From an uncultured bacterium (lineage in GTDB: Bacteria > Auribacterota > JACPWU01), in the NCBI GenBank assembly GCA_964640155.1, contig CAZXEQ010000002.1, forward strand, positions 210,001 through 242,000: a DNA stretch of 32,000 bases, given 5' to 3'. The notes under the pieces were generated by a model. That model did no database searches, was not told the origin of the DNA, and saw nothing but the letters and a program-made list of their open reading frames with translations. Below, piece by piece: positions 1,821 through 32,000 of this stretch; position 1 is the stretch's first letter; every line of letters begins with the position of its first letter. A program made the position numbers and the translations under genes.

Positions 1821-1830
1821 GGATTAAAGA

Positions 1831-4178: not shown

Positions 4179-4184
4179 TTTGTC

Positions 4185-4217: not shown

Positions 4218-4237
4218 AAGAATTTAAGGTTTTCAAA

Positions 4238-5603: not shown

Positions 5604-5845
5604 GAAAGCAAACGCCCTTGAGTCATTTCCTTGATACTTTTAGAAAGCGAATTCCTTAAATCTGGATCTGCCATCACTTCTAAAGTCTCCACAATACTTT
5701 CATAGAAATCCCACGGCATAATTGCCAGAATGGGTTTTCCTCGACGGGTCACAGTAACCGCCCCAGAATCCTTCTTTCTGGAAAAAGCCTTTGGAAGGTC
5801 CAACAGGGTGGACCTTGCTTTAGAAATAGAGATTGTTTCGTCCAT
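5570..5845 (-). CDS. Type II antitoxin, Phd/YefM family
   Basis: ISISKARSTLLDLPK...VTVTRRGKPILAIMPWDFYESIVETLEV is the typical Phd/YefM N-terminal fold pattern. An AGAGG Shine-Dalgarno motif lies upstream. The antitoxin gene precedes the toxin gene. Confidence 0.8.
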   Translation of the reverse strand: MDETISISKARSTLLDLPKAFSRKKDSGAVTVTRRGKPILAIMPWDFYESIVETLEVMADPDLRNSLSKSIKEMTQGRLLSWEKVKKDLKL

Positions 5846-5863
5846 AAGTACCTCTTTTAGTAT

Positions 5864-5903
5864 TTGTACATCTTATTGTACAAGTATATGCACAAAAGTT
5901 CAA
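5864..5903 (-). promoter_or_regulatory. Putative sigma70-type promoter of the phd-relE cassette with overlapping TGTACA palindromes (candidate operator)
   Basis: Read on the minus strand: TTGAAC (5903..5898), a 17-nt spacer, then TACAAT (5880..5875). Two TTGTACA elements (5864..5870 and 5876..5882, 12-nt period) overlap the -10 and the start region. The second forms the perfect 8-bp palindrome TTGTACAA. Confidence 0.45.
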
Positions 5904-5953
5904 GATTAAATTTTATACGCTGTCCTCGCCATTCGTCTTTTGGAGAACCAAAT

Positions 5954-5998
5954 TTACGTAGCAGCTTCGATCTTACGGTTGACAGCAGCTTGTTGGAA
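5954..5998 (-). repeat. Relic copy of the giant gene 3' end: 14 codons plus stop, FQQAAVNRKIEAAT*
   Basis: 39 of 45 nt are identical to 6547..6591, which encodes FQQAAAQRKIEAAA* at the end of the giant ORF. The stop codon sits at the same relative position. An in-frame TGA lies only 3 codons upstream of the relic, so it is not part of a larger ORF. Confidence 0.8.
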
Positions 5999-6009
5999 AA
6001 ATCTTCAGC

Positions 6010-6270
6010 TTACAAAAGCTCTTTGAATTTTTCAGGAGTGATTTGCAAGTCGTTGATAATACCATGTAAAGTTTTTGGCTTGATATCGTGCCCTGCATGC
6101 ATAGGAATAACAACACGTGCTTGATCAGAATTTCGATAAAAAATGGCGTGACTACCTTTTTGGCGATCTAATTCAAATCCAAGTTGCTTCGCGACACGAA
6201 CCAAATCTTTTGCTTTAACCTGAGGAGGAACGGACTCATGCAGCAATATGGATAGGCTTAATAATAACAT
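6010..6270 (-). CDS. hicA: Type II toxin HicA (mRNA interferase, YcfA-like)
   Basis: KAKDLVRVAKQLGFELDRQKGSHAIFYRN...VVIPMHAGHDIKPKTLHGIINDL is the HicA dsRBD-like pattern, including the G-S-H motif. The annotated ATG start overlaps hicB by 35 nt. A TTG at 6246..6244 is an alternative start. Confidence 0.8.
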   Translation of the reverse strand: MLLLSLSILLHESVPPQVKAKDLVRVAKQLGFELDRQKGSHAIFYRNSDQARVVIPMHAGHDIKPKTLHGIINDLQITPEKFKELL

Positions 6271-6460
6271 CTTCGCAGGGAATAGGTTGTGAATGAGACT
6301 TAAGACTTTCTATATACAGTTGAATTGCCTCTGTAATATTCTTAATTATTTCTTCGTAAGTATCACCCTGAGAGTGGCAACCTCTAAGAGCCGGGCAAAA
6401 GGCATGATATCCCCCATCCTCTTCACGCTCTATAATAACAGTATAGTTATGTTCACTCAT
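6236..6460 (-). CDS. hicB: Type II antitoxin HicB-like (UPF0150 N-terminal domain only)
   Basis: YTVIIEREEDGGYHAFCPALRGCHSQGDTYEEIIKNITEAIQLYIE matches the HicB/UPF0150 fold pattern. The gene lies directly upstream of hicA. An AAGGA Shine-Dalgarno motif precedes the ATG. Confidence 0.75.
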   Translation of the reverse strand: MSEHNYTVIIEREEDGGYHAFCPALRGCHSQGDTYEEIIKNITEAIQLYIESLKSHSQPIPCEDVIIKPIHIAA

Positions 6461-6517
6461 GGATTATATCCTTTACATCCATCACCAACCAACAATTCTA
6501 AAATGCTTGATAACTGT

Positions 6518-6546
6518 AGTGTACTTCACATAAGGGGTAATGTCAA
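6518..6546 (-). promoter_or_regulatory. Putative sigma70-type promoter of the hicBA cassette
   Basis: Read on the minus strand: consensus TTGACA (6546..6541), a 17-nt spacer, then TACACT (6523..6518). The -35 hexamer directly abuts the giant gene stop codon (6547..6549). Confidence 0.45.
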
Positions 6547-6591
6547 TTACGCAGCAGCTTCGATTTTGCGCTGGGCAGCAGCTTGTTGGAA
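6547..6591 (-). repeat. Functional copy of the 45-bp repeat: last 14 codons plus TAA of the giant ORF
   Basis: Partner of 5954..5998 (39/45 identical). Together the two copies bracket 5999..6546, which contains exactly the promoter, hicB and hicA. Confidence 0.8.
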
Positions 6592-9500
6592 GGCCTCTGT
6601 AACATTTCTCATGGCAACAGGTTGCATTGGGGGTAAGGGTTTGGAATCATCATAATCTGAAAGTGTTTTAGCAATCTCTGCAAGTTCATTTGCTTTAAAT
6701 AAGCCTGATTTTTCCAATTCTTGATTCAGTTGAGCCGCTGTCACTGGAGATTCATTGATTAAATTAATAACTGCAAAAAGTTGAGTCAGCACAGCCCCAC
6801 GCTCTGCTTGAACATAAGGAACACGTGCTGCTTTCAAGGCTTCACCTTTACCCCAAACCCCATCAAAATTATCCTTACAAAGGATAAATCTAAAAGAAGT
6901 AGCTGGTAATTCTTGAGCCCCAGGAATACGAGTTCTCAGTTGAGCAAGAACGTCTGTTGTCACATCTTGTCCTTTTGCCGTAGATGGAACAATAAGAGCA
7001 ACTGATTCTAACTCTTGATCTGTTAAACCCTCTGCTTTTAAAAGGCTTCTAGCGATTTTTTCACCTTCCGTTGCAATAACAGGAAGTTTCTTACCTCTCG
7101 CACGATAAGCTTGTACAATTGTTCTTAAACCAACACTTGAAAGTTTACCCGTACCGGTATCTCTCATCATCGCCATATCGATGACTGTGACTATATCCTT
7201 ATCAAAAACAGATTTCGACAAATCTGATGTCGGATTACTCATTTCTTTTGCAAAGGGATCTCGAGCTAAAACAGCTCTGCGTGTAGCTTCAAAATGGGCT
7301 TCCGTTCGATACTCTGACACTTTGCTTTCTGCGAGAGCGTTCAAGAAACCAGGAAGCTGGGTCACAAGATCGTTTAATCTCTCTAAAGCTTCTATTCTGC
7401 GTTCCTCGTCACGAATTCCTGGAATTAAATCTGCTAATTCTTTAGAAATTCCTTCTGTCTTTTTTGTGATCACTCCAGCCGAAACTAACATGGCAAAAAC
7501 GACCTCTGGAGCATCACTAATCCAAGCTTGCATCTCTGAAACGCTCAACTCTGATAAACCTTCTGCTGGAAGGTTGGCTAATTTTTCTTTCAAATTATTT
7601 TGAGCAAAAATGGTGTCGAATAAACCATTTCTAAAAATAAGTTCTTGCTCTGAACGTTGATCCACTCCAGATGCTTGAGTCAGAAGTCTTGTCAATAAAC
7701 GCTGCATTTTTGCTTTGCGAGCTTTTGCTGAAAGACGATAATGAGGAGTTGGAGCATCTGATCTTTCATCTGCCTTCATCCCTTCTAACATATTGCCAAC
7801 TGTACGATAACGCTGCAAACCTTCTTCTTCTTTTACATAGATTTTTTCAGAAGGATTACGGCTATACGGTTCAGAAAAATTTCCTCCTCTAATCCTTATA
7901 ATCGTTGCATTAACTTTTTCCCCAACCAGATAGGCAGCATAAGCACGGTTATGACCAAAACGCATAAAATAGCGTTTACGTCCTTGATCATCCGTTAATT
8001 CATACACAACCACAGGAGTTCTTTGATTCACAGGTTTATCAAATTCCCTTCTCAGCTCTTCCAACCGATAAACAACCACATCACTAAAGATAGAACCTTG
8101 CGTTGGAATAATTTCTGATGGGGCAATGACACGATTTTCCATCGTAATTTCTGAATCCCTGAAAACAGTTCCTCCTAATCCAACACCTGGAGTCTTAAGA
8201 TAAGTAATAATGCCAGGGGGGCGTGACTCTCTAAATTCCGTTCTTCCACCCACTGGCTCAATTCTCCCTCCCACAATTAATCTAGCCCAAGCTTTAAAGA
8301 AATCAAGCCGAGCAACTCTTTGAGGTTCAGGCCTAGATTCTAATTTAGAGACTAGATCATGAATAGTTTCTTCAGGATTTTCTTCAACCATCTTTATTAC
8401 AATTTGTTCTAGAATATGATTTTGAACAGAATCTTCGAAAGTGACTACTTTTTCTCTAGCATCTTTACCTAAGAACTCCTGAACCATCTCATAATGCTGA
8501 GATTTTCTATCATTGTGTTCTTTATAAAGAGCTATTAATTGATCTAGAGTTCTATTTTCAGCAGAAATTTGTTCTAAGAGGAATAGGACTTCGACAACAT
8601 TTGTCCATCTTTTTGCTTTAATATTTTCTTGAATTTGCATTGCCCAGGCAAGAATGTGAATGACACGCGATAGTGTAAACCCTGGATACTTTCCAGAAGC
8701 AAGTACCTCTGCTATCCTAACCTTGTATTCTTTTTCAATATAAATTTCAAACTGTTCATGCTGAAGAGCTGTATTAAAATCAGAGAGTCCTTTTTGAACA
8801 AGAATATAAGTCGTTTGTCCATCTCGAGATTTAAGATGATAGGCTCCTCCAATATTGCGCGAGGCAAAAAGTTGGGCTGCTACATCATTCGCTTCAAACT
8901 CAACGAGTTGATAAGAAATATTCCCCGCTGTATCTGGTGTTGTCCCAGTCGTTTTAGCTTCGGGAGGTAATTTATCTATATAGCTTCTTAAGCCATTCTC
9001 TTCTGCTTCTGTTAAAATGTTTTCAGTATCAGTAGTTGATACATCTACCACACTAACCATTTTACGAGCTCCACCTGATTTTTGACGGGCCTTAAAAGCA
9101 ATAAAGTTTGAGTCTCTTTGTAGGCGGGCTTGTGCAGCTAAAACGTCGTCAAGACTTGGGTTATCTCCTTTCGCTACATATTGTTTAGCTTTAACTATTA
9201 ATGCATCTCGCTCCCATGCTTTCATGGTAATCCATTCTAGTCTAAACACGCTATTAGAGGCTTCTATCCCAAATCTTTCGGTATTTAAGACAGAGAACAG
9301 ATACTCCAGACCCTGCTCAAGTAATGCAAATTCTTTATCTGCCATCACCTGTGATTGTCTTAATCTAGCTTCTCTATCAGCATCTGCCATCACCTCTAAT
9401 TTTCTTAATTCAGCTTCTATATCAGCTAAAGCTTGCTGTCTTGAAAAGAGAGGCTTTTCTGTCCATTTTAAGTCACTGGTCACAACCAGCTCTATCACAG

Positions 9501-12500
9501 CTCCTGTTTCCATCTTAACGGCCTTATAACGCCTTGTTCCATTTGCATCTACTGCTTCGATCTGACCAAAAATTGCATAGCCTTGTTTTACAGCCTCTGG
9601 ATATATTTTCTCAAGCGCTGCTATTTCTGCTTTATCAATATTTTTTGCAGAGGCAAATGCTCTTTCCTGAATTCTCGCAAGTTGGGCTTTTTGATTATCC
9701 TCTATACTTGTTTTCAATAATGCACTCACCTTGGAGCTTAATCCTATTTTTGGCTTTGTCCCTTCTTTATAATGTCGAGCTAATCTTTCTCCAAGAATTC
9801 CTTGTACAGCTTGGTTAAATTCTTGAACTTGGGGAGCTTCATTTGGAAAGAAACGAACAACCCATTTGTCTTGTTCACTTCTATCTGCTGTTAATTCATC
9901 TAATGCATCTTCAAATGAAAGATCTTTAAATTTACTTTGAATGAATTCTTCCAATGCCGGCAATTTCTGTGCGATGGTTTGAACATACTGGGTGCGAAGG
10001 CCGCCTGTATCAAGAACAGGAGTAAATAATTCTGAATTCTGTGCCATTCGAATGTCATTAGCCCAGGCCAAAACATGGAAGATTCTTTCAGCTGTATAGC
10101 CTTTGGGCAATCTTTTCTGAGCTTCCATTTCTCGGATTTCTTTTCCCCATTTGGTTTCTGCAAATATTTCTGAGAGTTCATGCTGTTTATAGAGGGCTCG
10201 ATTACTTGCATTTCGTGATACAAACACATAATGTGTTCCATCAGGCAATGGCAAATGAAATCCATTCGTGAGTTTAAGCTCTTTTGCTAAGTTCCCAATC
10301 GATGGTTTGTTCTTATCCTTAGGCGCAGGATCATTTTCATCAAAATAAATTAATTGATAGCGAATATTGATACCTTCAATTGCACAAGCCTCTTGAATTT
10401 TCTCTACCCCTTCTGCTTGAGCAACTGCCATCAATTGCTGAATTTGTTTATCTGTTAAACTTCTTGCTGTACTATGATTTGGCCCTGGGTCTTTCAAAGC
10501 ACCGACTGCATTTCTTACTACAGTTTCAGGTAAGGATAACTCCTTATACAGTCTCTCAGTAATTCCCATACATGATTTAGCAAAACGTTTTTCATTTTCT
10601 TCTCTTCGTTGAGCCCCCGGACCTACATCTGTGAGAATCCATCTTCCTGAATCGTCCAAGATCTTCCTAAGCATAACTGGCTCTGCATCCTCAGCATTTA
10701 AATACTTACCAGGTGGAGATTGATAACGTGTATTTTTCCATGAAGCTACCTCTAAAAGAACATTCAATGGTTTTCCACTTTCACCAAAAATTTCTTTAAT
10801 TCTTTTTTCTCTATCGCTCCTTAAAGAACTAGATTTTGTAGAAGAACCTAGATCTTCTTTGCGTTTCCCATACAAAGCCCAGTAAAGAAGATCCTCGGTA
10901 ATATTATCCATCTCGTTAGCAAATTTCTGATGCCCTCCTTGAAGATGGTAATTACCAGGTTGGCCTGAAAAATTTCTAATAGTAATTTTTCCATCATTAT
11001 CGATGGCAATATCTCTTAATGGATCAAAATCTTTACTAAAAGTCCGGTCGGGATTTTCATCTATTTCTTTTAATACATTATAAAGAAAACTCGCAACGCC
11101 TTTTAATCTTGCTCCTTTATCATCAGGAAGCGAATTCCACCAGTCTGCAAATACAACTTCTTTCCTGATAGTCACTTTTGGAGGCGTCCTTACAATTACT
11201 GGCATACCAACCAAAGGTTTCACTTCTTGAGGTTGAACAGGTAAAGGTTCTATGTATTTTTCAAAAAGAGGCTTTTCTGTCCATGTTAAGTCACTTGTGA
11301 TAACCAACTCTATAACGGCACCTGTTTCAAGTTTAATCGCTTCATAGCGTCGTGTACCATTTGCATCAGGCTTTTCGATCTGACCAAAAATTGCATAGCC
11401 TTGTTTCACAGCTTGTGGATATATTCTCTCTAATGAAGTGATTTCTGATTTATTAATAGCTTTTGCAGATGCAAACGCTTTTTCTTGAATTTTTGCTAGC
11501 TGAGCTTTTTGATTATCTTCTTTAGTTTGCTTTCGTAAACTCCATCCTACTTGTGTTCCTTCTCTATAATGTTGAGCTAATCTTTCTCCAATCACTCCTT
11601 GTATGCTTTGATTAAATTCTTGAACTTGGACAACCTCATTTAGGAAGAAACGAGTAACCCATTGGTCTTGTTCACTTCTATCGGCTGTCAGTTCATCCAA
11701 GGCATCTTCAAATGAAAGATCTTTAAATTTACTTCGAATGAAAACTTCTAAATCAGCTAATTTTTGAGCTTTTGTTTCAACATGCCCAGCTCTAAAGCCA
11801 GATGTGTTAAGAACGGGCGTAAAAAGTTCTGAATTCTGTGCCATTCGAATGTCATTAGCCCAGGCTAAAATATGGAAGATTCTTTCGGCATTATAGCCTT
11901 TGGGTAATTTTTTCTGAGTTTCCATTTCTCGGATTTCTTTTCCCCATTTGGTTTCTGCAAATATTTCTGAGAGTTCATGCTGTTTATAGAGGGCTCGATT
12001 ACTTGCATTTCGTGATACAAACACATAATGTGTTCCATCAGGCAATGGCAAATGAAATGCATTCGTGAGTTTAAGCTCTTTCGCTAAGTTTCCAATCGAT
12101 GGCTTGTTCTTATCCTTAGGAGCAGGATCATTTTCATCAAAATAAATTAACTGATAGCGAATATTGATACCTTCTATCGCACAAGCCTCTTGAGTTTTTT
12201 CTATTCCCTCTGCTTGAGCTGCTGCCATTAATTGCTGAATTTGTTTATCTTTTAAAGTTCTAGCAGTGCTGTGATTTGGCCCCGGATCTTTTAAAGCTCC
12301 CACAGAAGCTCTATCTATTACTGATGATTGTTTAGTAGAAAAATTTATTCTTTCAAAAATAGATTTCCAAACATCTCCTAACCGTAACCATCCAAGAACC
12401 GAAACTGCAACAGCTCCCAAAATTTTTATAAAAATAGGCACCCAGTTAACACCCATAGCTGCTCCAACAGCAGGCGCAGCACCCACTAATGCAGGTAAAC

Positions 12501-15500
12501 TTGGGATAGCCGCAATAATTAAAACAACAGATAAGAAAGGCAAGAATCGAGAAAGTAGTCCCCAAACTGTCGGGAATTTGGATGCAAAAACACTAAGGAC
12601 AGGTTGTTTTGGTCCTTGGTGAGGAATAAAAATACTCATGACACCCACCACAGCTGCACGAGCCGTGGTTGCCGTTTCATTGGCTTGAAGTCCTTGGGAA
12701 AGTTCCCCTCTTAAATTCACAATAGCGTCGTCTAAATTAGAAACATTTGTTTGAACAGAAGAAAGATCTCTCAAGACATCAGCCCATAATCCTAATTCTA
12801 TAAAGGTTTTCCCAGCGGTCGTTTCATTCAACCTTAATATTTCTCTTAAAAGATCTAACGAAGTTTTTGTCCCTGCCAAGACATCCACATCTTGTGCATT
12901 ACTTCGAAGCATTTCTGAATATCCCCTTAACGCTTCTAAAGTCAATGTAGCTGCTTGGCGACGAGCATTTGCCTGAAAACGTGGAGGTAGGTTTTCTGCT
13001 CTACTCATCAATTCCCGTGCCTGAATTAAAGAATTTTCAATATTTCTTATTTTTCTTTCTCTTTGTACACTTACCAAAACCTCGTTCATTCCAGAAATCG
13101 ATCTGATTCTTGCTCCGTAAGCTTCTATAACTACATTTGCATTTTTTCTTTGCTCAGACCCAAGTTGATCTAATCTAGCTGCAAGACGTTCTCGAACGTC
13201 TAAATAATGATTCATTATTTCTCTTTTTTGAACTTCATCCAATGTCTCTTGAGCCAAAAGATACTCGACATGTAAAAGATCCACTAAATCTCTCATTGTC
13301 AAAAATCGATCTTTAGGACTATAGGATAAAGATATTTTGATAATTTCACGAAGTGTATTGGGAATGTTTGGATTTTCATTTTCTAAAGCTGAAACAAAGC
13401 GATGGGTAAAGATGGCTTGGACTTGCTTAAATTGCTTAGCATTTATAGTTCCATCTTCATTATGACAAGATGTTTTTAATTTTTCTATTTCTAGTGGAGT
13501 TAATCCTCCATCAATATTTAATTCAAAAGGAAAACCTATCGTGAAGAGTTCACAAATTTCAAGAGCAAAAGACCAAACATCACTAGGAAAACTAATCGTT
13601 TCTGTAGAACTTCCAAGGACTTGTTTGACTCTCTCAGGAGCTGCACATTCAAGTCTTCCAAAGAAATCTTTTTCCCCTTCCTTTTCAATTTGTTTAACAG
13701 GAGCGGCAGATCCAAAATCAATCACTTTCACGTTGATGGCATTAGAATCTGCTACTGTTCCCGAAACCATTACATTATCTGAGTTGATATCTCGATGAAG
13801 AAGTCCTGCTCCATGAACTTGAGCCAAACCATTCGCATATTGGCTGGCCACGTGAAGTCTGGTTCTTAATTTAAGCTGAGGAGATTCAGTTGATTCAGTA
13901 ACTGTGGTCGAAAATTTTCCTAATTTTAATGCCTGAGGAACATATTCTATCACTAAAAATGAGACGGATCCTGTCTCTGTACTTTTTTGGTGATCTTGTA
14001 ATATAGCAATATTGGGATGATGACCGATTTTTTCAAGAGCAGAAACTTCTAAATCAAAACTTTTTTCCGCATCGTCTGTATTAAAAGGAACTTTAATAAC
14101 TACAGTTTCTAAACGTTCGTTTAGTGCTAGATAAACTCCAGCCATTCCTCCTTCATCTAACCAACGATAAATTGTATAAGCTTCCTTTTCTCCTTGTATG
14201 ATGATATTACGTTTTGCTAATTCTTCAGGAGACAAGCCAACTCTTATATCTGAAAGAGATATAACATCTTTTCTTAAATCTAGGGGGGGCTGTGGTTTTA
14301 TTGCTTCGCGAGGAACGCGATTTAGTTCAGATTGAACTGCTTTTTCTAGGCTTTGTAATTGTTGCCAACGAATAATTAAGTGATCATGTACCTCTTTTGA
14401 AAGGTTAGGAATGGCTTTTAATTGGCCTAAAGAAACTTCAATTTTCTTGATGCTTTTAAGAAAACTATCTAAAACTCCCAAATACGCCCAATCTGGCAAT
14501 AAAGTGCTCATTCTTTCTCTGTCATGAATAAGAGCAAAAAATACATCCACTGCAGCTTCCAATTTCCCAAGAGCCCTTCTATCAGTAGGTTCTTCTTCTG
14601 TTAATTTAACAACTTCAGCCAAAACATCTAAATCTAAAGCATTTGAAATGGCCACAGGCAAGTTTTGAACACGATTTTCTAAATCTTTTAATTCTCCACT
14701 CAATATCTTTTGATGTGTGTTTCTAGCCCTAGAAATAGCTCTATCCAAATCTGCTAAGATATTTCCTCTGGCTTGCATCGATTTAGAATAATCACTAAAC
14801 CCTTTTAATTGCATCGCTCTGGCTTCATAGGCACTTAAGATAGCTCCCACAGTTGCCTTGCGATCTCCTAGGTTTACTGCGCGCGCATCTAAACGACCTG
14901 CAATTTCAAAATAAAGTTGGCCTAATTCTTTTAATTGAACTTGATTTGGATTTTCTTCTGCTAAAAGTTTTTCTAAACTTAAAAAATCTGAAATATCGCG
15001 CATAGTCAATACACGCTCTTTTGGTTCTTTAGAAAGAGAAATTTTAAGAACGGCCTGTAATGTTTTAGGAATATCCTCTACTCTTTCTTGTTCTAATGCA
15101 TCAACTAGATTCCCAGCTAATACATCTTGCATTCTTTGGACTTCTTCTTCAGAAAATTTTCTTCCAAAGGCTACTTCTATCTTTCTAATATCTTCACTCG
15201 TGATGACATTTTGATCGGAAGTTTTAAAAGGAGAACCCTTTCTAAACACCGTTTCGTAAATCATGATTGCAAAAGCAAACACATCACTTTCGAGCCCAAT
15301 ATCTTTTCTAAGTCCATTTTGATCTAAAGTGCGTATTAATTGAATCAAACTATCTATACGTTCTCTAGACATGTAACTAGGAGTTAACAAAGGTATTTTC
15401 TCTCCTTCATTCTGAAGCGTTGAAAGACGAATCGCTCCTCCCATATCAATTACTTTAGCTTTTTGCCCTATAAGGAGATTACCTGGTTTTAAATCGCGAT

Positions 15501-30500: not shown

Positions 30501-31998
30501 TCAACAAAGCTTCAAGTTCATTTGCCTTTGAAAATCCATGTCCTCTATTAAGAAGAGCTGTAGGAATATAAATGGTATAAATTAAATTCCCTTTGTCATC
30601 GACTTGGGACTCTGAAATCGCAGGAATAGGTTGAAGCCCATAACCTTCTCTTTCAAATCCTGTCACGTCTGGGCCTAAATCTACAGGCTGAACACGAATG
30701 AAAGCTTCTTGATATTGAACGCCATTGATCTCTTTAGCTTTTGCAAGCTGGATCTTAGATGCCTTTCTTTGACCTTTTTTCCCGGATTTCACGCCCAACA
30801 AAGCATCTGCAACCCGTTCACTGTGTCCTTGATAGCCTGGAATATCTCCTGCTCCTTCTAAGAGATCACTAACGCCTGTCTCATTAAAATCTTTCCCCGT
30901 CATAGGGACTTTGTTTCTACCTTGCTTCTGTACAATAGCTCGAATTCGGGTAAGTACTCTCGCTTCTTCATCACGCTCCAAATGAAACTCATTGGGTGCT
31001 CGTGCGGTGATGGGAGTTCCCGCCGCTGCAACGCTTAAGACTGCATCAGGGGGTTCGACGAATGCTAGAGCTGGTACTTCTGCTGGTACAGGAGCCCTAC
31101 CAGAATCAGTCAAAACCGCTCGACGAGTAGCAATCATAGTAATCCGCTTCTCCAACCCCTCAAACCATCCCTTCACAGGTTCTGAAAATTTTAACTCCTT
31201 TCGATTGGCACGATCAACATTCGGATCGAAGTCAAAAAGAAAATCTAAACTTTTCTGACCACCTGGAGCATCAGCTGTATAACTTGCCGCATCAGACATA
31301 TAAAAAACTTTTAAAATTTCAAAAAACTCTTGCATCGATTTTCCTGATTCACCTGCCATTTTTTGAATCACAACACTTGCTTCTTCTGCAGTTATGAGCT
31401 CTTTCATATATTCCCCCACCGGATCTCCACTGAGAAGTGCTTGAGCAAGTTTGATTTCATTTTCAGAACAATCAAGCTGTCTTAGAAGAAGTCCTACAAT
31501 ACGAACCGTGTGTATATGCTGATCTCTTTTGTCTCCTTGCATAATCGCTAAATTTTTTCCGATATCATGAATCGCAAGAATCATTCTAAAAAAAACTTTA
31601 TCCACACCAGGAATATCTCTATTGCCAAAATAATGTTCAAACTGACGTAAAACCATCTCTGTGTGTTGTTCAATGGTGTAACCCTCTACAAGGTCCGCGC
31701 CTGCTTCTAATTGTTCTTTAAGGAATGGGTTTGCATCCTTTAAGGCTTTTATGAAGGCTTGCGGGCTAAATGAAGTGGCCGATTGAGCTGCCAGCTGACG
31801 AATATTTGAAACATGGGAGCTATTAATACTCTTAAAAGTATTAGAAGAAAGTTCTGATAGTTTCTTTTGAGCTTCTTCAAATGCCTTCCAAAGCCCCGTT
31901 TCTTCGCGTAACACTCTATTTACTTTTTCTTTAGCCTTGCTGATAGCAGCTTGAACATCTGACCTATTTCGAATATTTTCTGGAACTTGTTTTAACAT
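6547..31998 (-). CDS. Giant multidomain membrane protein of at least 8,483 aa. Order: HD-like domain, hydrophobic cluster, 7 tandem Ser/Thr kinase-like domains, hydrophobic cluster, duplicated H-E-x-x-E modules, ParB/Srx-like domain. The 5' end may lie outside the window.
   Basis: A single open frame of 8,483 codons plus TAA in AT-rich DNA. The largest ORF in any other frame across this interval is 159 aa. Recognisable motif sets occur along the whole length (see the sub-features). The first ATG is at 31998..31996, 2 nt from the window edge, so no upstream stop is visible. Confidence 0.9.
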   Translation of the reverse strand: MLKQVPENIRNRSDVQAAISKAKEKVNRVLREETGLWKAFEEAQKKLSELSSNTFKSINSSHVSNIRQLAAQSATSFSPQAFIKALKDANPFLKEQLEAGADLVEGYTIEQHTEMVLRQFEHYFGNRDIPGVDKVFFRMILAIHDIGKNLAIMQGDKRDQHIHTVRIVGLLLRQLDCSENEIKLAQALLSGDPVGEYMKELITAEEASVVIQKMAGESGKSMQEFFEILKVFYMSDAASYTADAPGGQKSLDFLFDFDPNVDRANRKELKFSEPVKGWFEGLEKRITMIATRRAVLTDSGRAPVPAEVPALAFVEPPDAVLSVAAAGTPITARAPNEFHLERDEEARVLTRIRAIVQKQGRNKVPMTGKDFNETGVSDLLEGAGDIPGYQGHSERVADALLGVKSGKKGQRKASKIQLAKAKEINGVQYQEAFIRVQPVDLGPDVTGFEREGYGLQPIPAISESQVDDKGNLIYTIYIPTALLNRGHGFSKANELEALLKRRGPNIAAGALAHEVSEIIGYQPVRKDEKPRSITHSEAVQITSLYNEDIRSREDAQAGKAVLSDLLRLVMVRAAVQAEPLDITYLEGLGKPYNAIEKYLNLADRPQLHHEVSQRAVELSEEVTNYATTHLAYGYLVTNDRNPTKALNVLSERVDTVFSRGHPVLKRSGPANEVLQKEYDALKSEMKAVYEKLVSEVKLAELLSLLRDVNILMLISSRTYLDTAEWDLDHKHLKRLSAKIEAEHPSDAESPHPIRTLLTQVISWHDKIHPHRRIEKIIVRDAVGARAPPISDEKDITAEQEELALFATNIPEEGRIYKFFLNFLLHHAKDKDDQDRPLAFAILGKGTVRISALNTYDYVLGDLAKRLHLELARKYARQYARYVFPVGARVAVIMPEEIQKRIQKEFQEQFIVLAKEEIEKIKRATDSNNKDEITRCNNALTYLNNLKVETSSGEQPVDPIYQELYEDVRAENQTAYQARLEGGMQATLSDQVKDLKVGETFARIEDLVERITQLNKKLEERKKVVGEMYASDKDVIACKAKLWKLALLKERYYTLKRLQDVPKILSRSKILYVFFERKGIQSTSSRPPAPQPDTPVSFSSRDQMTVFAALKEEIMALGKEQNLAESIAEAWLRHLNTPGNKISGLKDLKVEALKRLEVPLSQEAWGHICENLEPLMGRLIILAERKQPPSFIESYVREAEKGVVVGFVQRTQDIEEFRAQQGAEAELLVEAYGLAGLPPYIFQSDNPREIGAIPDPDNLIGRAQQGLEFLGYHLAAVREGHAARASAQEGELDQYRENTLRYFYQEHTELSQRRSDEKEELQRQDKRGAVEILFRGFEAWLRAPESTRRTFGEFIVPWVGDERENFSASAYRHGISNEDKVKKLAAYEAAASDFDLINDVSRFTKENLENLNEVRRNYLKAKEVVLKKVYHDPRHSDFIRDDFFPFFVQQTFFEGGAFVDNPPKIRYYDSEKGVMVEKVPGISTKKGDEHWTVYRGKDGKVYMIHVDMDFYQALDLLQRRLGILPDNDATIYKTHESIRTIIAQGVEKGLSPQEVALSVIRHMTNNVDVNLNPQNLQGEALKRHNEKIKEYLDQYITPEHLLATGVVTSEEMDAIGISTEQRQGKNQGELAEMMVVKIRDRALEDYKIRMSVMVVDEQMKVLDSGKRVFTGRKTKVGATVGFGEVKQKSIKEIKKVFSDTSNGVEDAKFARVDDDGRTRSLKGTVVNVGSGNAIAPNGKVFENVQAKKSDTKDRERAQIGQIIKWLGELLKWSPYQRLNEFQMKEIAQILYMASEDRNARLPASVAMETIRTNFPHFTKVHEGKLWQILAARWYVGIANIPQRKGQSSPPETIGEVLKLMGKEKNLEDDYRSDLPPNSDWPVVVKRAREAGMLPAIVQLFFRSLFFRLFVGAISGATLFLAYTPLSMLWKVASAQQLPGAENLVQNVTQTVPNIAQPRSLASILVSPGTAIILFAISFVCFGFVALVQKYPNLWDRLIPFLKPAAMVVSVITVSVIAVTLILTSSVGVWFSLGLIFGGFSVFSYLAPQQFDRTLDAIGLGEYAFLSSLENARIFSKKANHRAAMQSYQDALINDPFSDEARKGFFEHFYAAEAEIDPSNLSAFEKGAQTLFLRKEMEDFLREVHQFPPLAQAFFWQDFRVLLRGSIIAQNVFFNYAQRAFESVKAIQDPLEREHAYQALLSSLTRYIVLPQDLLLAFGMPFSAKWQILLAQIQAARENEENLSSHVNLQFLETEETQALLFSSLEKLMGSAGNASSATAQYLKYSRLKAQVEAMIPSIISHRAKLDPRGTILTKLNLVLARVQRPLDEMTQPSREDLDEANQLTQEATQTTADEQLQTYTKAIENLEAAALTPHFPERTFAEGMATLTSIFNQIKVVNARGDSEQAGRLQKLAERLHRSLTLGIAKKDLRTGEAVLIAPWTSENQRETITHFYNDQTALESQDIQVLRKAFIALLDSSEFAQGNPDTVRRVEIFLNRLLERTASAEENWSLYDWGIHDLMGQLVARLSYLPEFIRRSPVFNNLWARLMTPRTQVLQKLRSLGISSDADSMQMLLDDFVERVKKTQDVESRNSLIYISSILLNRLLVLHPELIRVPRWRAYREKTDEEMSKEVYSSHQNNRNRAPDSDLFVRLMTLSKSRTPNKEVNASDILAVCLQILASRPTHPDVVLLFSQTITALEVMAPEIGNQNPYLAIRPYAAAVIALQNFEKTTGKVHPAKARIQSELTAEKKKIGRALGEIGVLIDQADSLTKSDVAEALEVYEQADALLSPLRSIAEIEAVRTLMPKITEQIEQYSGKLIGCWRNLQPDVLLEGKRKQLEEIAVRINVPIVLAPKTVQEIHRQAINEIIETMHVYEWILTARPDSIQAANLLYQTMTLVTELVQAQMNSLIWVSPEERKQAKHVLEITFAQIDAMLSYLERMSKIQNLPKDVAKDLQRVTSTLERFYIVNAQDIALPTNVKLEDIFFMSAESLRLRNVLLKDQAGHVYTIESVIAHSGMSIVYRALDSKGKKVAIKVDLERFYDDFIGAEAATFEKISPEYRARFIDYKGHGSWGPLSFLITEYAEDSENLEDYISTHSISFSEQLRISRECAEGMEGLHQQNIFDGDFKPSNVLVLPDGSTRRIDLGFCRKVEDLNVSNPAQRARNSILGSLYYMSPERHSMSRIFNEEDRSDLAGFEEKIKDIQVDFSSDIFSLALSFCELYGLGFPFVEDEILKIQAYRGQVQSELNALVGAQINLISLRVDQSAIDRVAADIARKRQEINGLIKKEQRARGDAIIKGELKEDIIQERSPPGRDPIPSTLFKILKISLSSDFKDRIFDIHDWVDFLKLEEIILGGIGTPDASFDAAMLLAKISNRVKARLKSENLDSLERVATLEEIIKAYENILGISTETIEDLLAADEDEAVLDMGEAAMVEDPDAPLGRGSQLSGGYTLVEEIGRGGYGSVWTATNSAGETVVIKLPLNKEAFDSFQAELNVFEFLEMQPEYCENIVRYRDKGTIEIKGETLPFIVFEYIENSKTLDVFMREAIESKTPQEVEALRLSLAVQLSQAVAAVDADGKGFLIRDIKPLNILITSQGKLKLIDFGAAISMDTLRSQSGREGDSVSGTLSFMAPERLMNMSVNEALNNPNITANTRSDLTSQLSTIDRSDVFSLALTMYHSVYGAAFPYHIRFYGYGADINALVREVETLFAQRHAKFKDLREAELARPDDPSTLALRAEYNDIDQAFSDKSGEIRDAKFKALLMGELNSDFEDNARKARVPEGLIPVLKISLAKDPKNRIFTAQDLADFIEMEHLLSQQKPEEADISYQRLLKRKTSQDLQSAELQKILLSYKNRINEALALMKAYTPRPDLAAGAKSLNDLGLSPEDLIQKGGVRIRDNNGEYYTIVRKLGQGGMGTVYLALTDSGQQVAIKFPHFNQIKGFQEELKAFNALGTRKDHPKNFEKIVGFDGEGKVGLYPFAVMEYLPNATELYDLTLDPSQVSMAGRLELGESLAQAIATLHALPEELAYRDLNPNNVVMTNGHMKLIDMGAALSVKNMERNAKGLRESNIMGVASFMAPDRLQNLYIIDDIHGLDRDLGVLKRQLDKLAENDPERNKVNASILELQERRREFIAAYLPFSISSDVYAYALVACEFMLGVGFPFSERKRFEQTIDELVEIQRASRKLSSEISRLETIRPDDPSISDKKALLAKMKNQTNRLVERKAEAILTSSVRNDFDTQAAHLTPQLRAVLKTSLSLKPQDRIYTMSHLRDFMRLEKILATENASKEDLENSLAALVEIEKSLQTRAVASSLYESVIAGYRQPLQDRYDAIAGVTPLTGTLVGEAPETQTTARHQIDLSTPESLNQFKADRPADWQPNTPADIGLSKGAFENVEFIVAGADGRKYTITDFVGEGAQGMVFRASDEDGLEFAIKFPKDIKDARGKDSPALTVFQTELDAFQELAKNKDSSFQNIVSYENHGVVGSIPFVVMEMVETPYNLKEYIQQKNPDPKTTFSIARQLAAALNQLHVQGWIYRDLKPENILIIEVNGVPVVKLIDLGAIISEAQLQKSKGIELVYVGTPNWMSRERYLGQNLALLTNRVSSSKTLSEPELKDIANQLNVLLGQPLLEASDPVPNQKELTKRIYKAFEPTNLSSDVSAYALIVHQLILREGYPFGEQAERLDVLLASRDIDMARKRVLSKTMSDLKTRNALEDEIRPIHEELQEIQQRLNEGQALRREGLLRGNFRQSLRDDVPSELGTKAGISKRLQQVLKIALTRESQERFFSMQDMMAFMAAEEFLANDSFNENQARSVIESFEQTLKNFLTLAQERQEKGLDLSSAIHTLNTYRNLLVAHLRKSQAIWVKSLEAKIAYLPIGVPLDAMGKLHVLDLNSIDLTTVTTLEELGLSEESLREQNVILHGAQEVYTIYKVLGQGGLGRVFLAYNERFETVVVKLPLDTTGPGRVALNFELTAFQALGSFPDNPDVYQNIVGFRAGGQIGQFPFLVIDHIADYQYLDDYGNSVTYSLEDDSIKLQRRLSVSSQWANGLMEFHRRNILYRDCQPTNALVSGESGQEIVKVIDPGAAISMSEIHERGETSDNFMGILNYLSPERIRNYLDILAGRPQGEEIDLSSDVFSFALNVYEGIFGKNLPFQLVDGRDIAPVDLANIEQAYSSVNEDLRREYVAKVKAILEGRLVPDLENETIPEALIPRTLQKILKISLSKNPRNRLLSMQDMAALLRAERFLAGAVQDENQVQAIVQDFVKVVNRFQAQLQTREDAGIDVTLAREAIQAYGFSLMAKLKTVSAPSSERLQLQIRFSSKKVRDLRSEDLSKVKNLDDLELTKESLASQNVVLSSPRGTYTIYNVLGEGGLGRVFLAYTDKDEIVVIKMPLNLSSAALQSFQIEEDAFVTFGYEDDNPAFYENIVGFKDYGKVDSFPFLVLENIENPKDMHQFSQTIAEGSEVTGEEKRTKLYRRLDGLGQWAQGLADLHDYNWVHRDLKPGNLLIGQKAKVIDMGGAIRLSTLQNEGEKIPLLTPSYMSRERIDSLIQLIRTLDQNGLRKDIGLESDVFAFAIMIYETVFRKGSPFKTSDQNVITSEDIRKIEVAFGRKFSEEEVQRMQDVLAGNLVDALEQERVEDIPKTLQAVLKISLSKEPKERVLTMRDISDFLSLEKLLAEENPNQVQLKELGQLYFEIAGRLDARAVNLGDRKATVGAILSAYEARAMQLKGFSDYSKSMQARGNILADLDRAISRARNTHQKILSGELKDLENRVQNLPVAISNALDLDVLAEVVKLTEEEPTDRRALGKLEAAVDVFFALIHDRERMSTLLPDWAYLGVLDSFLKSIKKIEVSLGQLKAIPNLSKEVHDHLIIRWQQLQSLEKAVQSELNRVPREAIKPQPPLDLRKDVISLSDIRVGLSPEELAKRNIIIQGEKEAYTIYRWLDEGGMAGVYLALNERLETVVIKVPFNTDDAEKSFDLEVSALEKIGHHPNIAILQDHQKSTETGSVSFLVIEYVPQALKLGKFSTTVTESTESPQLKLRTRLHVASQYANGLAQVHGAGLLHRDINSDNVMVSGTVADSNAINVKVIDFGSAAPVKQIEKEGEKDFFGRLECAAPERVKQVLGSSTETISFPSDVWSFALEICELFTIGFPFELNIDGGLTPLEIEKLKTSCHNEDGTINAKQFKQVQAIFTHRFVSALENENPNIPNTLREIIKISLSYSPKDRFLTMRDLVDLLHVEYLLAQETLDEVQKREIMNHYLDVRERLAARLDQLGSEQRKNANVVIEAYGARIRSISGMNEVLVSVQRERKIRNIENSLIQARELMSRAENLPPRFQANARRQAATLTLEALRGYSEMLRSNAQDVDVLAGTKTSLDLLREILRLNETTAGKTFIELGLWADVLRDLSSVQTNVSNLDDAIVNLRGELSQGLQANETATTARAAVVGVMSIFIPHQGPKQPVLSVFASKFPTVWGLLSRFLPFLSVVLIIAAIPSLPALVGAAPAVGAAMGVNWVPIFIKILGAVAVSVLGWLRLGDVWKSIFERINFSTKQSSVIDRASVGALKDPGPNHSTARTLKDKQIQQLMAAAQAEGIEKTQEACAIEGINIRYQLIYFDENDPAPKDKNKPSIGNLAKELKLTNAFHLPLPDGTHYVFVSRNASNRALYKQHELSEIFAETKWGKEIREMETQKKLPKGYNAERIFHILAWANDIRMAQNSELFTPVLNTSGFRAGHVETKAQKLADLEVFIRSKFKDLSFEDALDELTADRSEQDQWVTRFFLNEVVQVQEFNQSIQGVIGERLAQHYREGTQVGWSLRKQTKEDNQKAQLAKIQEKAFASAKAINKSEITSLERIYPQAVKQGYAIFGQIEKPDANGTRRYEAIKLETGAVIELVITSDLTWTEKPLFEKYIEPLPVQPQEVKPLVGMPVIVRTPPKVTIRKEVVFADWWNSLPDDKGARLKGVASFLYNVLKEIDENPDRTFSKDFDPLRDIAIDNDGKITIRNFSGQPGNYHLQGGHQKFANEMDNITEDLLYWALYGKRKEDLGSSTKSSSLRSDREKRIKEIFGESGKPLNVLLEVASWKNTRYQSPPGKYLNAEDAEPVMLRKILDDSGRWILTDVGPGAQRREENEKRFAKSCMGITERLYKELSLPETVVRNAVGALKDPGPNHSTARSLTDKQIQQLMAVAQAEGVEKIQEACAIEGINIRYQLIYFDENDPAPKDKNKPSIGNLAKELKLTNGFHLPLPDGTHYVFVSRNASNRALYKQHELSEIFAETKWGKEIREMEAQKRLPKGYTAERIFHVLAWANDIRMAQNSELFTPVLDTGGLRTQYVQTIAQKLPALEEFIQSKFKDLSFEDALDELTADRSEQDKWVVRFFPNEAPQVQEFNQAVQGILGERLARHYKEGTKPKIGLSSKVSALLKTSIEDNQKAQLARIQERAFASAKNIDKAEIAALEKIYPEAVKQGYAIFGQIEAVDANGTRRYKAVKMETGAVIELVVTSDLKWTEKPLFSRQQALADIEAELRKLEVMADADREARLRQSQVMADKEFALLEQGLEYLFSVLNTERFGIEASNSVFRLEWITMKAWERDALIVKAKQYVAKGDNPSLDDVLAAQARLQRDSNFIAFKARQKSGGARKMVSVVDVSTTDTENILTEAEENGLRSYIDKLPPEAKTTGTTPDTAGNISYQLVEFEANDVAAQLFASRNIGGAYHLKSRDGQTTYILVQKGLSDFNTALQHEQFEIYIEKEYKVRIAEVLASGKYPGFTLSRVIHILAWAMQIQENIKAKRWTNVVEVLFLLEQISAENRTLDQLIALYKEHNDRKSQHYEMVQEFLGKDAREKVVTFEDSVQNHILEQIVIKMVEENPEETIHDLVSKLESRPEPQRVARLDFFKAWARLIVGGRIEPVGGRTEFRESRPPGIITYLKTPGVGLGGTVFRDSEITMENRVIAPSEIIPTQGSIFSDVVVYRLEELRREFDKPVNQRTPVVVYELTDDQGRKRYFMRFGHNRAYAAYLVGEKVNATIIRIRGGNFSEPYSRNPSEKIYVKEEEGLQRYRTVGNMLEGMKADERSDAPTPHYRLSAKARKAKMQRLLTRLLTQASGVDQRSEQELIFRNGLFDTIFAQNNLKEKLANLPAEGLSELSVSEMQAWISDAPEVVFAMLVSAGVITKKTEGISKELADLIPGIRDEERRIEALERLNDLVTQLPGFLNALAESKVSEYRTEAHFEATRRAVLARDPFAKEMSNPTSDLSKSVFDKDIVTVIDMAMMRDTGTGKLSSVGLRTIVQAYRARGKKLPVIATEGEKIARSLLKAEGLTDQELESVALIVPSTAKGQDVTTDVLAQLRTRIPGAQELPATSFRFILCKDNFDGVWGKGEALKAARVPYVQAERGAVLTQLFAVINLINESPVTAAQLNQELEKSGLFKANELAEIAKTLSDYDDSKPLPPMQPVAMRNVTEAFQQAAAQRKIEAAA
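7891..8130 (-). other. ParB/sulfiredoxin (ParB-like nuclease/NTPase) superfamily domain (aa ~7957-8036)
   Basis: The segment reads VIAPSEIIPTQGSIF...TPVVVYELTDDQGRKRYFMRFGH(8016)NRAYAAYLVGEKVNATIIRI. From memory, the YF-x-x-FG-H-x-R-x-x-AAY...I-x-A-x-I block resembles the sulfiredoxin FGGCHRYAAY...IPAKLV active-site region. It also resembles the ParB GxxRxxA arginine patch. Confidence 0.6.
8626..8922 (-). other. Third, diverged copy of the H-E-x-x-E module (aa ~7693-7791)
   Basis: Three blocks align with copies A and B.
- NISYQLVEFEAND aligns with INIRYQLIYFDEND.
- AYHLKSRDGQTTYILVQKGLSDFNTALQH(7747)EQFEIY aligns with AFHLPLPDGTHYVFVSRNASNRALYKQHELSEIF.
- SRVIH(7781)ILAWAMQIQE aligns with ERIFHILAWANDIRM. 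Confidence 0.7.
9445..10512 (-). repeat. Internal direct repeat, copy B (aa ~7163-7518; contains the H-E-x-x-E module, H7273)
   Basis: Encodes VGALKDPGPNHSTARSLTDKQIQQLM...KQHELSEIFAETKW...ERIFHVLAWANDIRM...TSDLKWTEKPLF. It carries a 7-aa insertion relative to copy A in the segment after HYKEG. Antisense shadow ORFs 9900..10265 and 11865..12062 in the ORF track give nearly the same peptide, which confirms independently that the repeat exists at the DNA level. Confidence 0.9.
11263..12309 (-). repeat. Internal direct repeat, copy A (aa ~6564-6912; contains the H-E-x-x-E module, H6674)
   Basis: Encodes VGALKDPGPNHSTARTLKDKQIQQLM...INIRYQLIYFDENDPAPKDKNKPSIGNLAKELK...THYVFVSRNASNRALYKQHELSEIFAETKW...ERIFHILAWANDIRM...TSDLTWTEKPLF. 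This is near-identical to copy B, with a 1,797-nt offset at the repeat start and through the perfect run. Positions 11920..12058 are 100% identical to 10123..10261. Confidence 0.9.
12367..12657 (-). other. Hydrophobic cluster 2, two to four predicted transmembrane helices (aa ~6448-6544)
   Basis: Hydrophobic stretches: AAVVGVMSIFIP, LPFLSVVLIIAAIPSLPALVGAAPAVGAAMGV and WVPIFIKILGAVAVSVLGWLRL. The helix count is ambiguous by eye. Confidence 0.65.
13255..14181 (-). other. Protein kinase-like domain K7 (aa ~5940-6248)
   Basis: - Gly-rich loop: LDEGGMAGV (partly degenerate).
- Beta3 Lys: VVIK (K5969).
- AlphaC Glu: in FDLEVSALEKI.
- Catalytic loop: HRDINSDN (D6070, nt 13789..13791; the loop Lys is replaced by Asn).
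- DFG: D6094 (nt 13717..13719).
- Downstream motifs: CAAPER, PSDVWSFAL, PKDRFL. Confidence 0.85.
14960..15912 (-). other. Protein kinase-like domain K6 (aa ~5363-5680)
   Basis: - Gly-rich loop: LGEGGLGRV.
- Beta3 Lys: VVIK (K5392).
- AlphaC Glu: in FQIEEDAFVTF.
- Catalytic loop: canonical HRDLKPGN (D5502, nt 15493..15495).
- DMG: D5518 (nt 15445..15447).
- Downstream motifs: SYMSRER, ESDVFAFAI, PKERVL. Confidence 0.88.
16262..17220 (-). other. Protein kinase-like domain K5 (aa ~4927-5246)
   Basis: - Gly-rich loop: LGQGGLGRV.
- Beta3 Lys: VVVK (K4956).
- AlphaC Glu: in LNFELTAFQAL.
- Catalytic loop: YRDCQPTN (D5062, nt 16813..16815; the loop Lys is replaced by Gln).
- DPG: D5083.
- Downstream motifs: NYLSPER, SSDVFSFAL, PRNRLL. 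Confidence 0.85.
17585..18783 (-). other. Protein kinase-like domain K4 (aa ~4406-4805)
   Basis: - Gly-rich loop: VGEGAQGMV.
- Beta3 Lys: FAIK (K4435).
- AlphaC Glu: in FQTELDAFQEL.
- Catalytic loop: YRDLKPEN (D4538, nt 18385..18387).
- DLG: D4559.
- Downstream motifs: NWMSRER, SSDVSAYAL, SQERFF. Confidence 0.85.
19150..20289 (-). other. Protein kinase-like domain K3 (aa ~3904-4283)
   Basis: - Gly-rich loop: LGQGGMGTV.
- Beta3 Lys: VAIK (K3933).
- AlphaC Glu: in FQEELKAFNAL.
- Catalytic loop: YRDLNPNN (D4032, nt 19903..19905; the loop Lys is replaced by Asn).
- DMG: D4049.
- Downstream motifs: SFMAPDR, SSDVYAYAL, PQDRIY. Confidence 0.85.
20545..21651 (-). other. Protein kinase-like domain K2 (aa ~3450-3818)
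   Basis: - Gly-rich loop: IGRGGYGSV.
- Beta3 Lys: VVIK (K3479).
- AlphaC Glu: in FQAELNVFEFL.
- Catalytic loop: IRDIKPLN (D3585, nt 21244..21246).
- DFG: D3603.
- Downstream motifs: SFMAPER, RSDVFSLAL, PKNRIF. Confidence 0.85.
21935..22986 (-). other. Protein kinase-like domain K1 (aa ~3005-3355)
   Basis: - Gly-rich loop: VIAHSGMSIVY (degenerate).
- Beta3 Lys: VAIK (K3034).
- AlphaC Glu: in AEAATFEKI.
- Catalytic loop: DGDFKPSN (D3126, nt 22621..22623).
- DLG: D3144.
- Downstream motifs: YYMSPER, SSDIFSLAL, FKDRIF. Confidence 0.75.
25864..26328 (-). other. Hydrophobic cluster 1, about four predicted transmembrane helices (aa ~1891-2045)
   Basis: Hydrophobic stretches: LFVGAISGATLFLAYTPLSMLW, LASILVSPGTAIILFAISFVCFGFVALV, AAMVVSVITVSVIAVTLILTSSV and GVWFSLGLIFGGFSVFSYLA. 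Confidence 0.7.
30379..30729 (-). other. Possible diverged N-terminal copy of the H-E-x-x-E module (aa ~424-540)
   Basis: NLIYTIYIPTALL...GALAH(513)EVSEIIGY has the same strand-then-HExxE(I) layout as the C-terminal modules. H513 is encoded at 30460..30462. The overall similarity is weak. Confidence 0.3.
31264..31701 (-). other. HD-domain-like metal-dependent phosphohydrolase module (aa ~100-245 of the giant ORF)
   Basis: The H...HD...H...D pattern is present. It comprises EQH(112)TEMV; ILAIH(144)D(145)IGK, with the HD codons at 31564..31569; DQHIH(163)TV; and YMSD(235)AA. Confidence 0.55.
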
Positions 31999-32000
31999 AC

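Follow-up and report, generated by a model that had tools for sequence, protein, structure and literature searches.

A gene of at least 25.4 kb encodes a giant protein with seven predicted Hanks-type kinase domains and a module shared with Candidatus Omnitrophota proteins

Open reading frames (ORFs) of more than 20 kb that hold few domains with an annotation and show little conservation are common in Omnitrophota (PMC10066038). The giant ORFs of this group are poorly conserved, rich in repeats and often anchored by transmembrane (TM) segments (PMC10066038; 10.64898/2026.06.07.730766, section 8 and Discussion). Those described include the Archaeovorins, which have SecA-DEAD and SecA preprotein-binding domains and many TM helices, and the 'Dockerin-type' giants, which have dockerin, discoidin and cellulosome-like domains; both reach at least 30,000 amino acids (aa) (bioRxiv 10.1101/2023.11.21.568195). 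Surveys covering thousands of proteins that reach 10 kaa or more found about 80% to be sequence singletons and domain repeats within a protein to be the rule, the tandem-repeat scaffolds listed being TSP3, NHL, WD, HEAT, TPR and hexokinase (10.64898/2026.06.07.730766, section 8). Here, a giant minus-strand ORF was analysed in a 32,000-nucleotide stretch of DNA from an uncultured bacterium (assembly GCA_964640155.1, contig CAZXEQ010000002.1, positions 210,001 to 242,000), which is referred to as the window. Its product, the giant protein, is predicted to combine an array of kinase domains with three copies of a domain with an HExxE…H motif, the module.

A giant gene of this kind is already known in Omnitrophota; the seven-kinase architecture and the module are new. 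Like the Omnitrophota giant ORFs (Seymour et al. 2023; West-Roberts et al. 2023; Nielsen & Lui 2026), the ORF is very long, AT-rich and poorly conserved and has few annotated domains, its internal domain repeats are old at the DNA level, its product has TM segments without a signal peptide, and the module is shared with proteins from Omnitrophota metagenome-assembled genomes (MAGs). It differs from them in its size, which at 8.5 kaa as seen is under the 10-30 kaa thresholds of the surveys, and in that Pfam searches found no SecA-DEAD, dockerin, C39/S8 peptidase, discoidin or sugar-metabolism domain. The giant protein falls outside both the Archaeovorins and the Dockerin-type giants, having none of their Pfam families, 8,483 aa and only about six TM segments, and a Hanks-type kinase repeat is not among the listed scaffolds (10.64898/2026.06.07.730766, section 8). 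The finding thus extends a known phenomenon, giant, sequence-unique and repeat-rich ORFs being already the rule in Omnitrophota.

Six-frame translation showed that one minus-strand frame (6550..31998) runs for 8,483 codons without a stop, the stop codon being at 6547-6549, as had been described in an earlier reading of the window made from the sequence alone (the sequence-only reading). With a stop frequency of ~0.070 per codon expected from the base composition of the minus strand, a run of 8,483 codons without a stop has a chance probability of ~e^-614. The remaining frames inside the interval are broken, as also described earlier; their longest stop-free run is 164 codons, and the largest shadow ORF with an ATG, GTG or TTG start is 159 aa (26719..27198). 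The coding signal was followed in ten consecutive tiles of ~850 codons, with four neighbouring housekeeping genes as the reference. The results showed that the GC content of the three codon positions decreased in the order GC1 (0.52-0.57), GC2 (0.34-0.40) and GC3 (0.23-0.32) in all ten tiles, and that the first codon position was purine-rich in each of them. In frame, relative synonymous codon usage (RSCU) of the tiles correlated with that of the four reference genes at r = 0.74-0.85; the values were -0.22 to 0.15 for frame +1 and 0.51-0.70 for frame +2. The GC content along the ORF was flat (0.36-0.42) and the same as in the neighbouring genes. These results demonstrate that the ORF is genuinely coding over its full length, as the sequence-only reading had supposed, and is one gene of at least 25.4 kb. 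The first complete codon of the frame is the ATG at 31998..31996, with only 2 nt of the window upstream of it. The giant protein therefore has at least 8,483 residues and its N-terminus is uncertain, as noted before; the real start may be upstream of the window edge. Residues are numbered here from this ATG.

Two Logan assemblies from different SRA runs were a 100% match to window positions 2184-9585 and 4120-5606. These independent assemblies back only the 3′ 3 kb of the giant gene (the last ~1,000 codons), not the other 22 kb. The longer contig, L001, terminates inside an internal duplication of ~1.8 kb, a place where assemblers can err, indicating that the duplication is a likely assembly break point. 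Both observations would fit an artefact, namely a contig that is misassembled or chimeric, or a run of decaying pseudogene sequence that reads as one frame by accident. However, the two copies of the duplication (window 9440-10520 and 11240-12320) share 83% of amino acids and 85% of nucleotides over 352 aligned codons, with a dN/dS of 0.19, which shows that both are maintained by selection and that they are not collapsed repeats. The minute chance of such a stop-free run, the uniform codon usage and position-specific composition of the ten tiles and the flat GC content also speak against an artefact, as do the catalytic residues retained in seven of seven kinase units and the genome record, which places the locus on a 501,885-bp contig. 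An artefact is considered extremely unlikely.

The sequence-only reading had counted seven Hanks-type kinases and had expected a match to PF00069. Searches of the two overlapping halves of the giant protein with PF00069 scored 202 bits (summed E 1.5e-59) for aa 1-4500 and 322 bits (summed E 4.5e-96) for aa 4001-8483, the Pfam gathering cutoff being 31.7. Three stretches were matched in the first half and five in the second, one of them common to both halves, giving seven kinase domains (K1 to K7). Self-BLAST showed that the units repeat with a period of 450-580 aa and are 25-40% identical to one another. Alignment with Mycobacterium tuberculosis PknB showed that each of the seven units retains the beta3 Lys, the catalytic Asp, the Asn and the Asp of DxG, and the seven cores look equipped for catalysis. 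The HRD motif is canonical in K6 and K7, and the nearest PDB sequences to K6 are TTK/Mps1 and Staphylococcus aureus PknB (E about 1e-8). K1 and K7 have a degenerate Gly-rich loop; K1, with the catalytic loop 'DGDFKPSN', retains its Lys, Asp, Asn and DLG Asp, and the catalytic-loop Lys of K3 is changed to Asn. In every unit a helical insert of 60-150 residues follows the APE motif in the C-lobe, and there is also a helical linker. Taken together, these comparisons, which confirm the earlier count, indicate that seven Hanks-type Ser/Thr kinase domains are present in one chain. The bacterial Hanks-type kinases PknB/Stk1 share with each unit the complete core, including Lys, Asp, Asn and the DxG Asp. 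The giant protein differs from them in having seven units per chain without PASTA or other known sensor domains, in the helical C-lobe insert of its units and in scores of 205-255 bits, far under the 450 bits of the NCBIfam equivalog cutoffs. No characterised protein is known to have seven full Ser/Thr kinase domains on a single chain, and a literature search found no bacterial multi-kinase chain.

The PADLOC models PD-T4-6, mad6, MkoA and Stk2 also match the kinase domains, with summed E values down to 1e-103, and type II toxin-antitoxin pairs of the HicAB and Phd/ParE types are encoded directly downstream. The gene might on this evidence be an anti-phage or abortive-infection kinase system like Stk2 or PD-T4-6, located in a small defence or toxin-antitoxin island. 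However, the PADLOC matches cover the generic kinase core only, the same domains being matched by PknB-type and many other models, and no curated cutoff was reached (NCBIfam MAD6, 117-163 bits against 460). No other defence component or partner gene was found in the window, and the other neighbours are housekeeping genes (tsaD, ctpA, deacetylase, epimerase). Known defence kinases are, moreover, single-domain proteins of a few hundred residues, which counts further against this explanation. A role in defence is thus regarded as very unlikely.

The triplicated H-E-x-x-E module of the sequence-only reading was recovered by self-BLAST and by a hidden Markov model (HMM) of the module. Copies 1 and 2, with 83% identity, represent a recent duplication of about 1.8 kb; copy 3 shares 33-36% identity with them and is nearest to the Omnitrophota homologues. 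The module family comprises 21 copies across 14 proteins. In an alignment of 18 copies (alignment A1), K6, H107, E108, E111, H141, L143, W145, R191 and F214 (copy-3 numbering) were invariant, and every copy opened with a conserved G-[AG]-x-K motif. The module is thus a conserved domain of ~240 residues with the pattern K…H-E-x-x-E…H-x-L-x-W…R. Scanning all 18 members yielded no Pfam, PHROG or PDB sequence match and no recurring family, and these sequence comparisons make the HExxE…H module a new family of conserved domains. The N-terminal 'AHEVSEI' (aa ~513) was considered as a fourth copy and ruled out, the module HMM finding three copies only. The tail that follows copy 1 (aa 6921-7160) was likewise ruled out as a pseudokinase C-lobe, with an hhalign probability of 0.1% against the seven kinases and no Pfam match. 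At window positions 9337-9426 there is a 45-bp tandem repeat of two copies with an 86% match; its product is a helical segment of 15 residues, repeated, in the linker between module copies 2 and 3.

An AlphaFold2 model of module copy 3, based on alignment A1, had a pLDDT of 86.2 and a pTM of 0.82. It consists of a four-stranded sheet with two helices, a long helix with HExxE, a next helix with H141 and then a helical bundle. Weak Foldseek matches of the model in BFVD were to IrrE-N-like (probability 0.92, TM-score 0.55 on the target) and SprT-like proteins and to two Bacillus-phage 'Peptidase' entries (probability 0.94 and 0.91), and those in PDB were to IrrE/PprI, DPP3 and anthrax lethal factor, all with E > 0.1. 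The metal ligands of the minimal zincin IrrE of Deinococcus deserti are H82, H86 and E113, a spacing similar to that of the module. The module resembles the minimal zincins (IrrE/ImmA M78, SprT-like) in the predicted order of its elements, a sheet, an H-E-x-x-[ligand] helix and a third-ligand helix ~30 residues on, and in that weak Foldseek matches to these families recur. It differs from them in having HExxE…H in place of HExxH…E, in its additional invariant K, W and R and C-terminal helical bundle, and in showing neither a sequence-profile link nor a significant structural match. The model suggests that the module is probably a metal-dependent hydrolase of zincin-like build in which the second and third ligands are swapped.

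Relatives were sought with HMMER in an exhaustive search of 1.84 billion representatives, the last 1,200 residues of the giant protein being the query. The search returned 15 proteins, 13 of which are real, and all of these match the module alone; the other two, P0005 and P0007, were rejected as low-complexity or repeat artefacts. A scan of JGI metagenomes found no relative of the close module subfamily. Word-index searches with aa 1-1000, aa 6561-8483 and A1 gave zero matches, self included, and are not evidence of absence, given that HMMER did recover relatives. The sole close relative found is P0001, a protein of 5,549 residues with 35% identity, encoded on a 620,977-bp NCBI contig; the remaining module carriers are proteins of 700-3,250 residues. 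All four named carriers are Candidatus Omnitrophota MAG proteins. Two of the four are annotated 'partial', and one of these, P0002, spans nearly its entire contig, indicating that for P0002, at least, the ORF is a fragment of a longer one. At the level of sequence similarity, the module ties the giant gene to Candidatus Omnitrophota proteins. Recurring as it does in large Omnitrophota proteins, this ~240-residue module offers a concrete, expressible handle on functionally opaque giants.

P0001 and the giant protein share a unit of ~560 residues, made up of the module and a 'WW…DFDPLxDI…ALYG' tail, with 27-37% identity. P0001 has three copies of the module, and the tail is common to four or five copies in P0001 (BLAST; alignment A3); a weakly similar stretch of P0001 faces K2, and the two proteins have nothing further in common. 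P0001 differs in having at most one kinase-like stretch (BLAST E 7e-4), in its N-terminal domain, read by eye as common to P0003 and P0012, and in having no counterpart of aa 1-3000 or 7900-8483 of the giant protein. The N-terminal motif that P0001 (aa ~60-130), P0003 (aa ~60-130) and P0012 (aa ~70-140) have in common by eye is 'I-[IV]-H-I-[QR]-D-[LA]-H-C-x-x-x-A-Q'. It follows a signal-like segment; this N-terminal region is absent from the giant protein within the window and might lie upstream if the ORF continues. P0003, a Candidatus Omnitrophota MAG protein of 3,248 residues, also contains an intein splicing domain (PF14890, aa 1114-1367, E 1.4e-21) and a methyltransferase domain beside the module.

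A Kyte-Doolittle scan with a 19-residue window confirmed the two hydrophobic clusters of the sequence-only reading, with peaks of 1.7-2.7 in cluster 1. The kinase array sits between the two clusters, and the module copies come after cluster 2. With even numbers of membrane-spanning segments (about four and two), the kinase array and the two terminal thirds of the protein would all be on the same side of the membrane, and because kinases require ATP, this side should be the cytoplasm. We lean, with modest confidence, towards a genuine and nearly orphan giant gene, most likely from a member of Candidatus Omnitrophota or a bacterium close to that phylum, that encodes a membrane-tethered, cytoplasm-facing, multi-kinase and multi-enzyme protein. 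In such a protein the two clusters would act as the membrane anchors, all large soluble parts would be on the cytoplasmic side, and the whole would be a membrane-anchored scaffold for seven kinases. Single Hanks kinases of the PknB type are activated through dimerisation and trans-phosphorylation. By analogy with these dimerising kinases, neighbouring units of the array could pair, trans-phosphorylate and then phosphorylate cellular targets, and a seven-kinase chain would keep the partners at very high local concentration, which would make it a natural test case for mutual activation of tandem kinases. Each module would be a zincin-type metallohydrolase with swapped ligands, in which His, Glu and His bind the metal and the Glu of the motif serves as the base, and would act on the substrates of the kinases or on the protein itself.

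Several points weigh against this interpretation. Foldseek gave no significant match for the module model (lowest E values, 0.2 in PDB and 8e-3 in BFVD). The motif of the module is HExxE, without the canonical zincin HExxH, the invariant His following 30 residues later, and for this reason 'metallohydrolase' has to be read as a putative designation. K3, K5 and K7 are without the catalytic-loop Lys and the Gly loop of K1 is degenerate, suggesting that some of the kinase units may be pseudokinases. The N-terminus may be incomplete, so that a signal peptide or extra domains are possible, and the topology is a prediction from a hydropathy scan.

Omnitrophota have been reported to be predatory or symbiotic, and a role of their giant ORFs at the interface between cells has been proposed (PMC10066038; 10.1101/2023.11.21.568195). 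The giant protein could thus be a delivered effector polyprotein, which would enter a prey or host cell whole or as self-cleaved fragments, its eukaryote-like kinases and hydrolase-like domains rewiring or damaging the target and its hydrophobic clusters inserting into the membrane of the target, not of the producer. Peptidase domains have been proposed to cut giant proteins into smaller polypeptides (10.1101/2023.11.21.568195, section 7), and the G-[AG]-x-K at each module start could, speculatively, be a processing site. At the domain level the kinases also match LegK1-type effector models, with an E value of 5e-21 and a score far below cutoff. However, no signal peptide or secretion-system signal was found in the N-terminus within the window, nor were any secretion genes within the window; the even TM segment counts suit a plain inner-membrane anchor, and the protease activity and the cleavage site of the modules are purely putative. 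Delivery as an effector is therefore judged unlikely. Still more doubtful is a proposal in which the module is a new ligand-swapped zincin protease and the giant protein a 'kinase polyprotein', a membrane-anchored precursor cut by its modules to release seven diverged Ser/Thr kinases and accessory hydrolases for use on the partner of a predatory or symbiotic Omnitrophota-like cell; cleavage might then fall at the conserved G-[AG]-x-K that opens each module.

The membrane-tethered multi-enzyme protein that we favour may also include phosphohydrolase functions and nucleotide- or phosphoprotein-handling functions, contributed by an HD-like and a ParB/Srx-like stretch, both unverified. The sequence-only reading had named the first an HD phosphohydrolase and the second a ParB/Srx domain. 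As stated, neither assignment was supported, and the two calls are better taken as motif-level leads. PF01966 and PF02195, which had been expected beside PF00069, gave no match at E <= 1 on short tiles, PF01966 being searched on aa 1-500. For the HD-like region, which shows an H…HDIGK…D motif, no solved HD protein was found in PDB with the sequence or with a two-sequence profile. Its H, HD and two D residues align with aa ~480-670 of P0010 (alignment A2, two sequences only), and BLAST against P0010 matched a 65-aa segment just downstream of the motif (E 7e-5); HMMER did not recover the link. P0010 is a JGI metagenome protein from a 31-kb contig in which the HD-like stretch (within aa ~480-912) is immediately upstream of a module copy, and this arrangement suggests that the HD-like stretch and the module may be functionally linked.

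The 'I-P-x-Q … P-V-x-V … F-G-H-x-R-x-x-A-A-Y' pattern of the ParB/Srx-like stretch, which includes 'FGHNRAYAAY', resembles 'FGGCHRYAAY' of Srx. BLAST against human sulfiredoxin gave an E value of 0.002 over 29 aa. The stretch differs from the ParB/Srx fold in having no Pfam or PDB sequence match: no ParB or Srx entry was among the PDB matches at E <= 10, the best phmmer match being an OmpA-like domain (E 0.37), a reading that scores equally. A single-sequence AlphaFold model of the stretch had a pLDDT of 31.4 and was unusable.

Searches of Pfam, NCBIfam, PADLOC and PDB recognised the kinase domains alone, in agreement with the earlier view that the whole architecture is outside any characterised family, and ~5,000 residues of the giant protein are without any match (Table 1). 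No relative of the N-terminus turned up when JGI metagenomes were scanned with aa 1-400. For aa 8063-8483 there was no genuine match in the exhaustive HMMER search, and none in Pfam or PDB; the match of P0005 to this region (query 1131-1164) was a spurious match of a 34-residue repeat. A pyruvate-carboxylase match (E 0.002) at aa ~957-1027 was judged to be coiled-coil noise. The significance of these ~5,000 unmatched residues is that they belong to a gene under purifying selection; the scope of 1.84 billion representatives applies to the exhaustively searched part.

Table 1. Positions of the features of the giant gene and its flank in the window
Feature	Window position	Strand	Residues	Remarks
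Giant ORF	6547..31998	minus		8,483 codons and stop; frame open to window edge
N-terminal region			1-1890	No Pfam, NCBIfam or PDB match; HD-like motif only
HD-like motif region	31099..31713	minus	96-300	H112…H143-D144-IGK…D191…D236, read from sequence
Hydrophobic cluster 1	25864..26328	minus	1891-2045	About four predicted membrane-spanning segments
Region between hydrophobic cluster 1 and kinase array			2050-2990	No match
Kinase unit K1	21889..23013	minus	2996-3370	PF00069; PknB alignment
Kinase unit K2	20509..21666	minus	3445-3830	GRGGYG, VIK, RD, DFG, APE
Kinase unit K3	19129..20316	minus	3895-4290	YRDLNPNN, DMG, APD; long coiled-coil insert
Kinase unit K4	17569..18810	minus	4397-4810	YRDLKPEN, DLG
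Kinase unit K5	16249..17250	minus	4917-5250	YRDCQPTN, DPG
Kinase unit K6	14899..15933	minus	5356-5700	Canonical HRDLKPGN, DMG
Kinase unit K7	13219..14199	minus	5934-6260	HRDINSDN, DFG, APE
Hydrophobic cluster 2	12376..12576	minus	6475-6541	Two strong predicted membrane-spanning segments
HExxE…H module copy 1	11497..12306	minus	6565-6834	Self-BLAST; A1-derived HMM, E 1e-71
Tail of unit 1	10519..11238	minus	6921-7160	'WWxxLP … DFDPLxDI … ALYG'
HExxE…H module copy 2	9709..10506	minus	7165-7430	Self-BLAST; A1-derived HMM
HExxE…H module copy 3	8326..9078	minus	7641-7891	Diverged; A1-derived HMM
ParB/Srx-like stretch	7813..8181	minus	7940-8062	'IAPSEIIPTQ … PVVVYEL … FGHNRAYAAYLVG'
C-terminal orphan region	6550..7812	minus	8063-8483	
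45-nt direct repeat, copy 2	5954..5998			Other copy 6547-6591, the last 14 codons and stop of the giant ORF

Directly downstream of the giant gene, the minus strand encodes a type II toxin-antitoxin pair, HicB (~6239-6460) and HicA (6010-6270), and a second type II pair, Phd/YefM (5570-5845) and a ParE/RelE-like protein (5250-5603), is located on the same strand between the giant gene and tsaD. The two copies of a 45-nt direct repeat, which are 87% identical and spaced by 593 nt, bracket the hicBA cassette. It looks from this arrangement as if the cassette was inserted directly behind the giant gene, with duplication of the 3′ end of the gene. The plus-strand genes at window positions 834-5278 are of ordinary housekeeping or cell-envelope type; they code for an NAD-dependent epimerase/dehydratase, a CtpA-like, PDZ-containing S41 protease, a divergent polysaccharide deacetylase and TsaD. 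The epimerase has a homologue of at least 90% identity in a second NCBI assembly.

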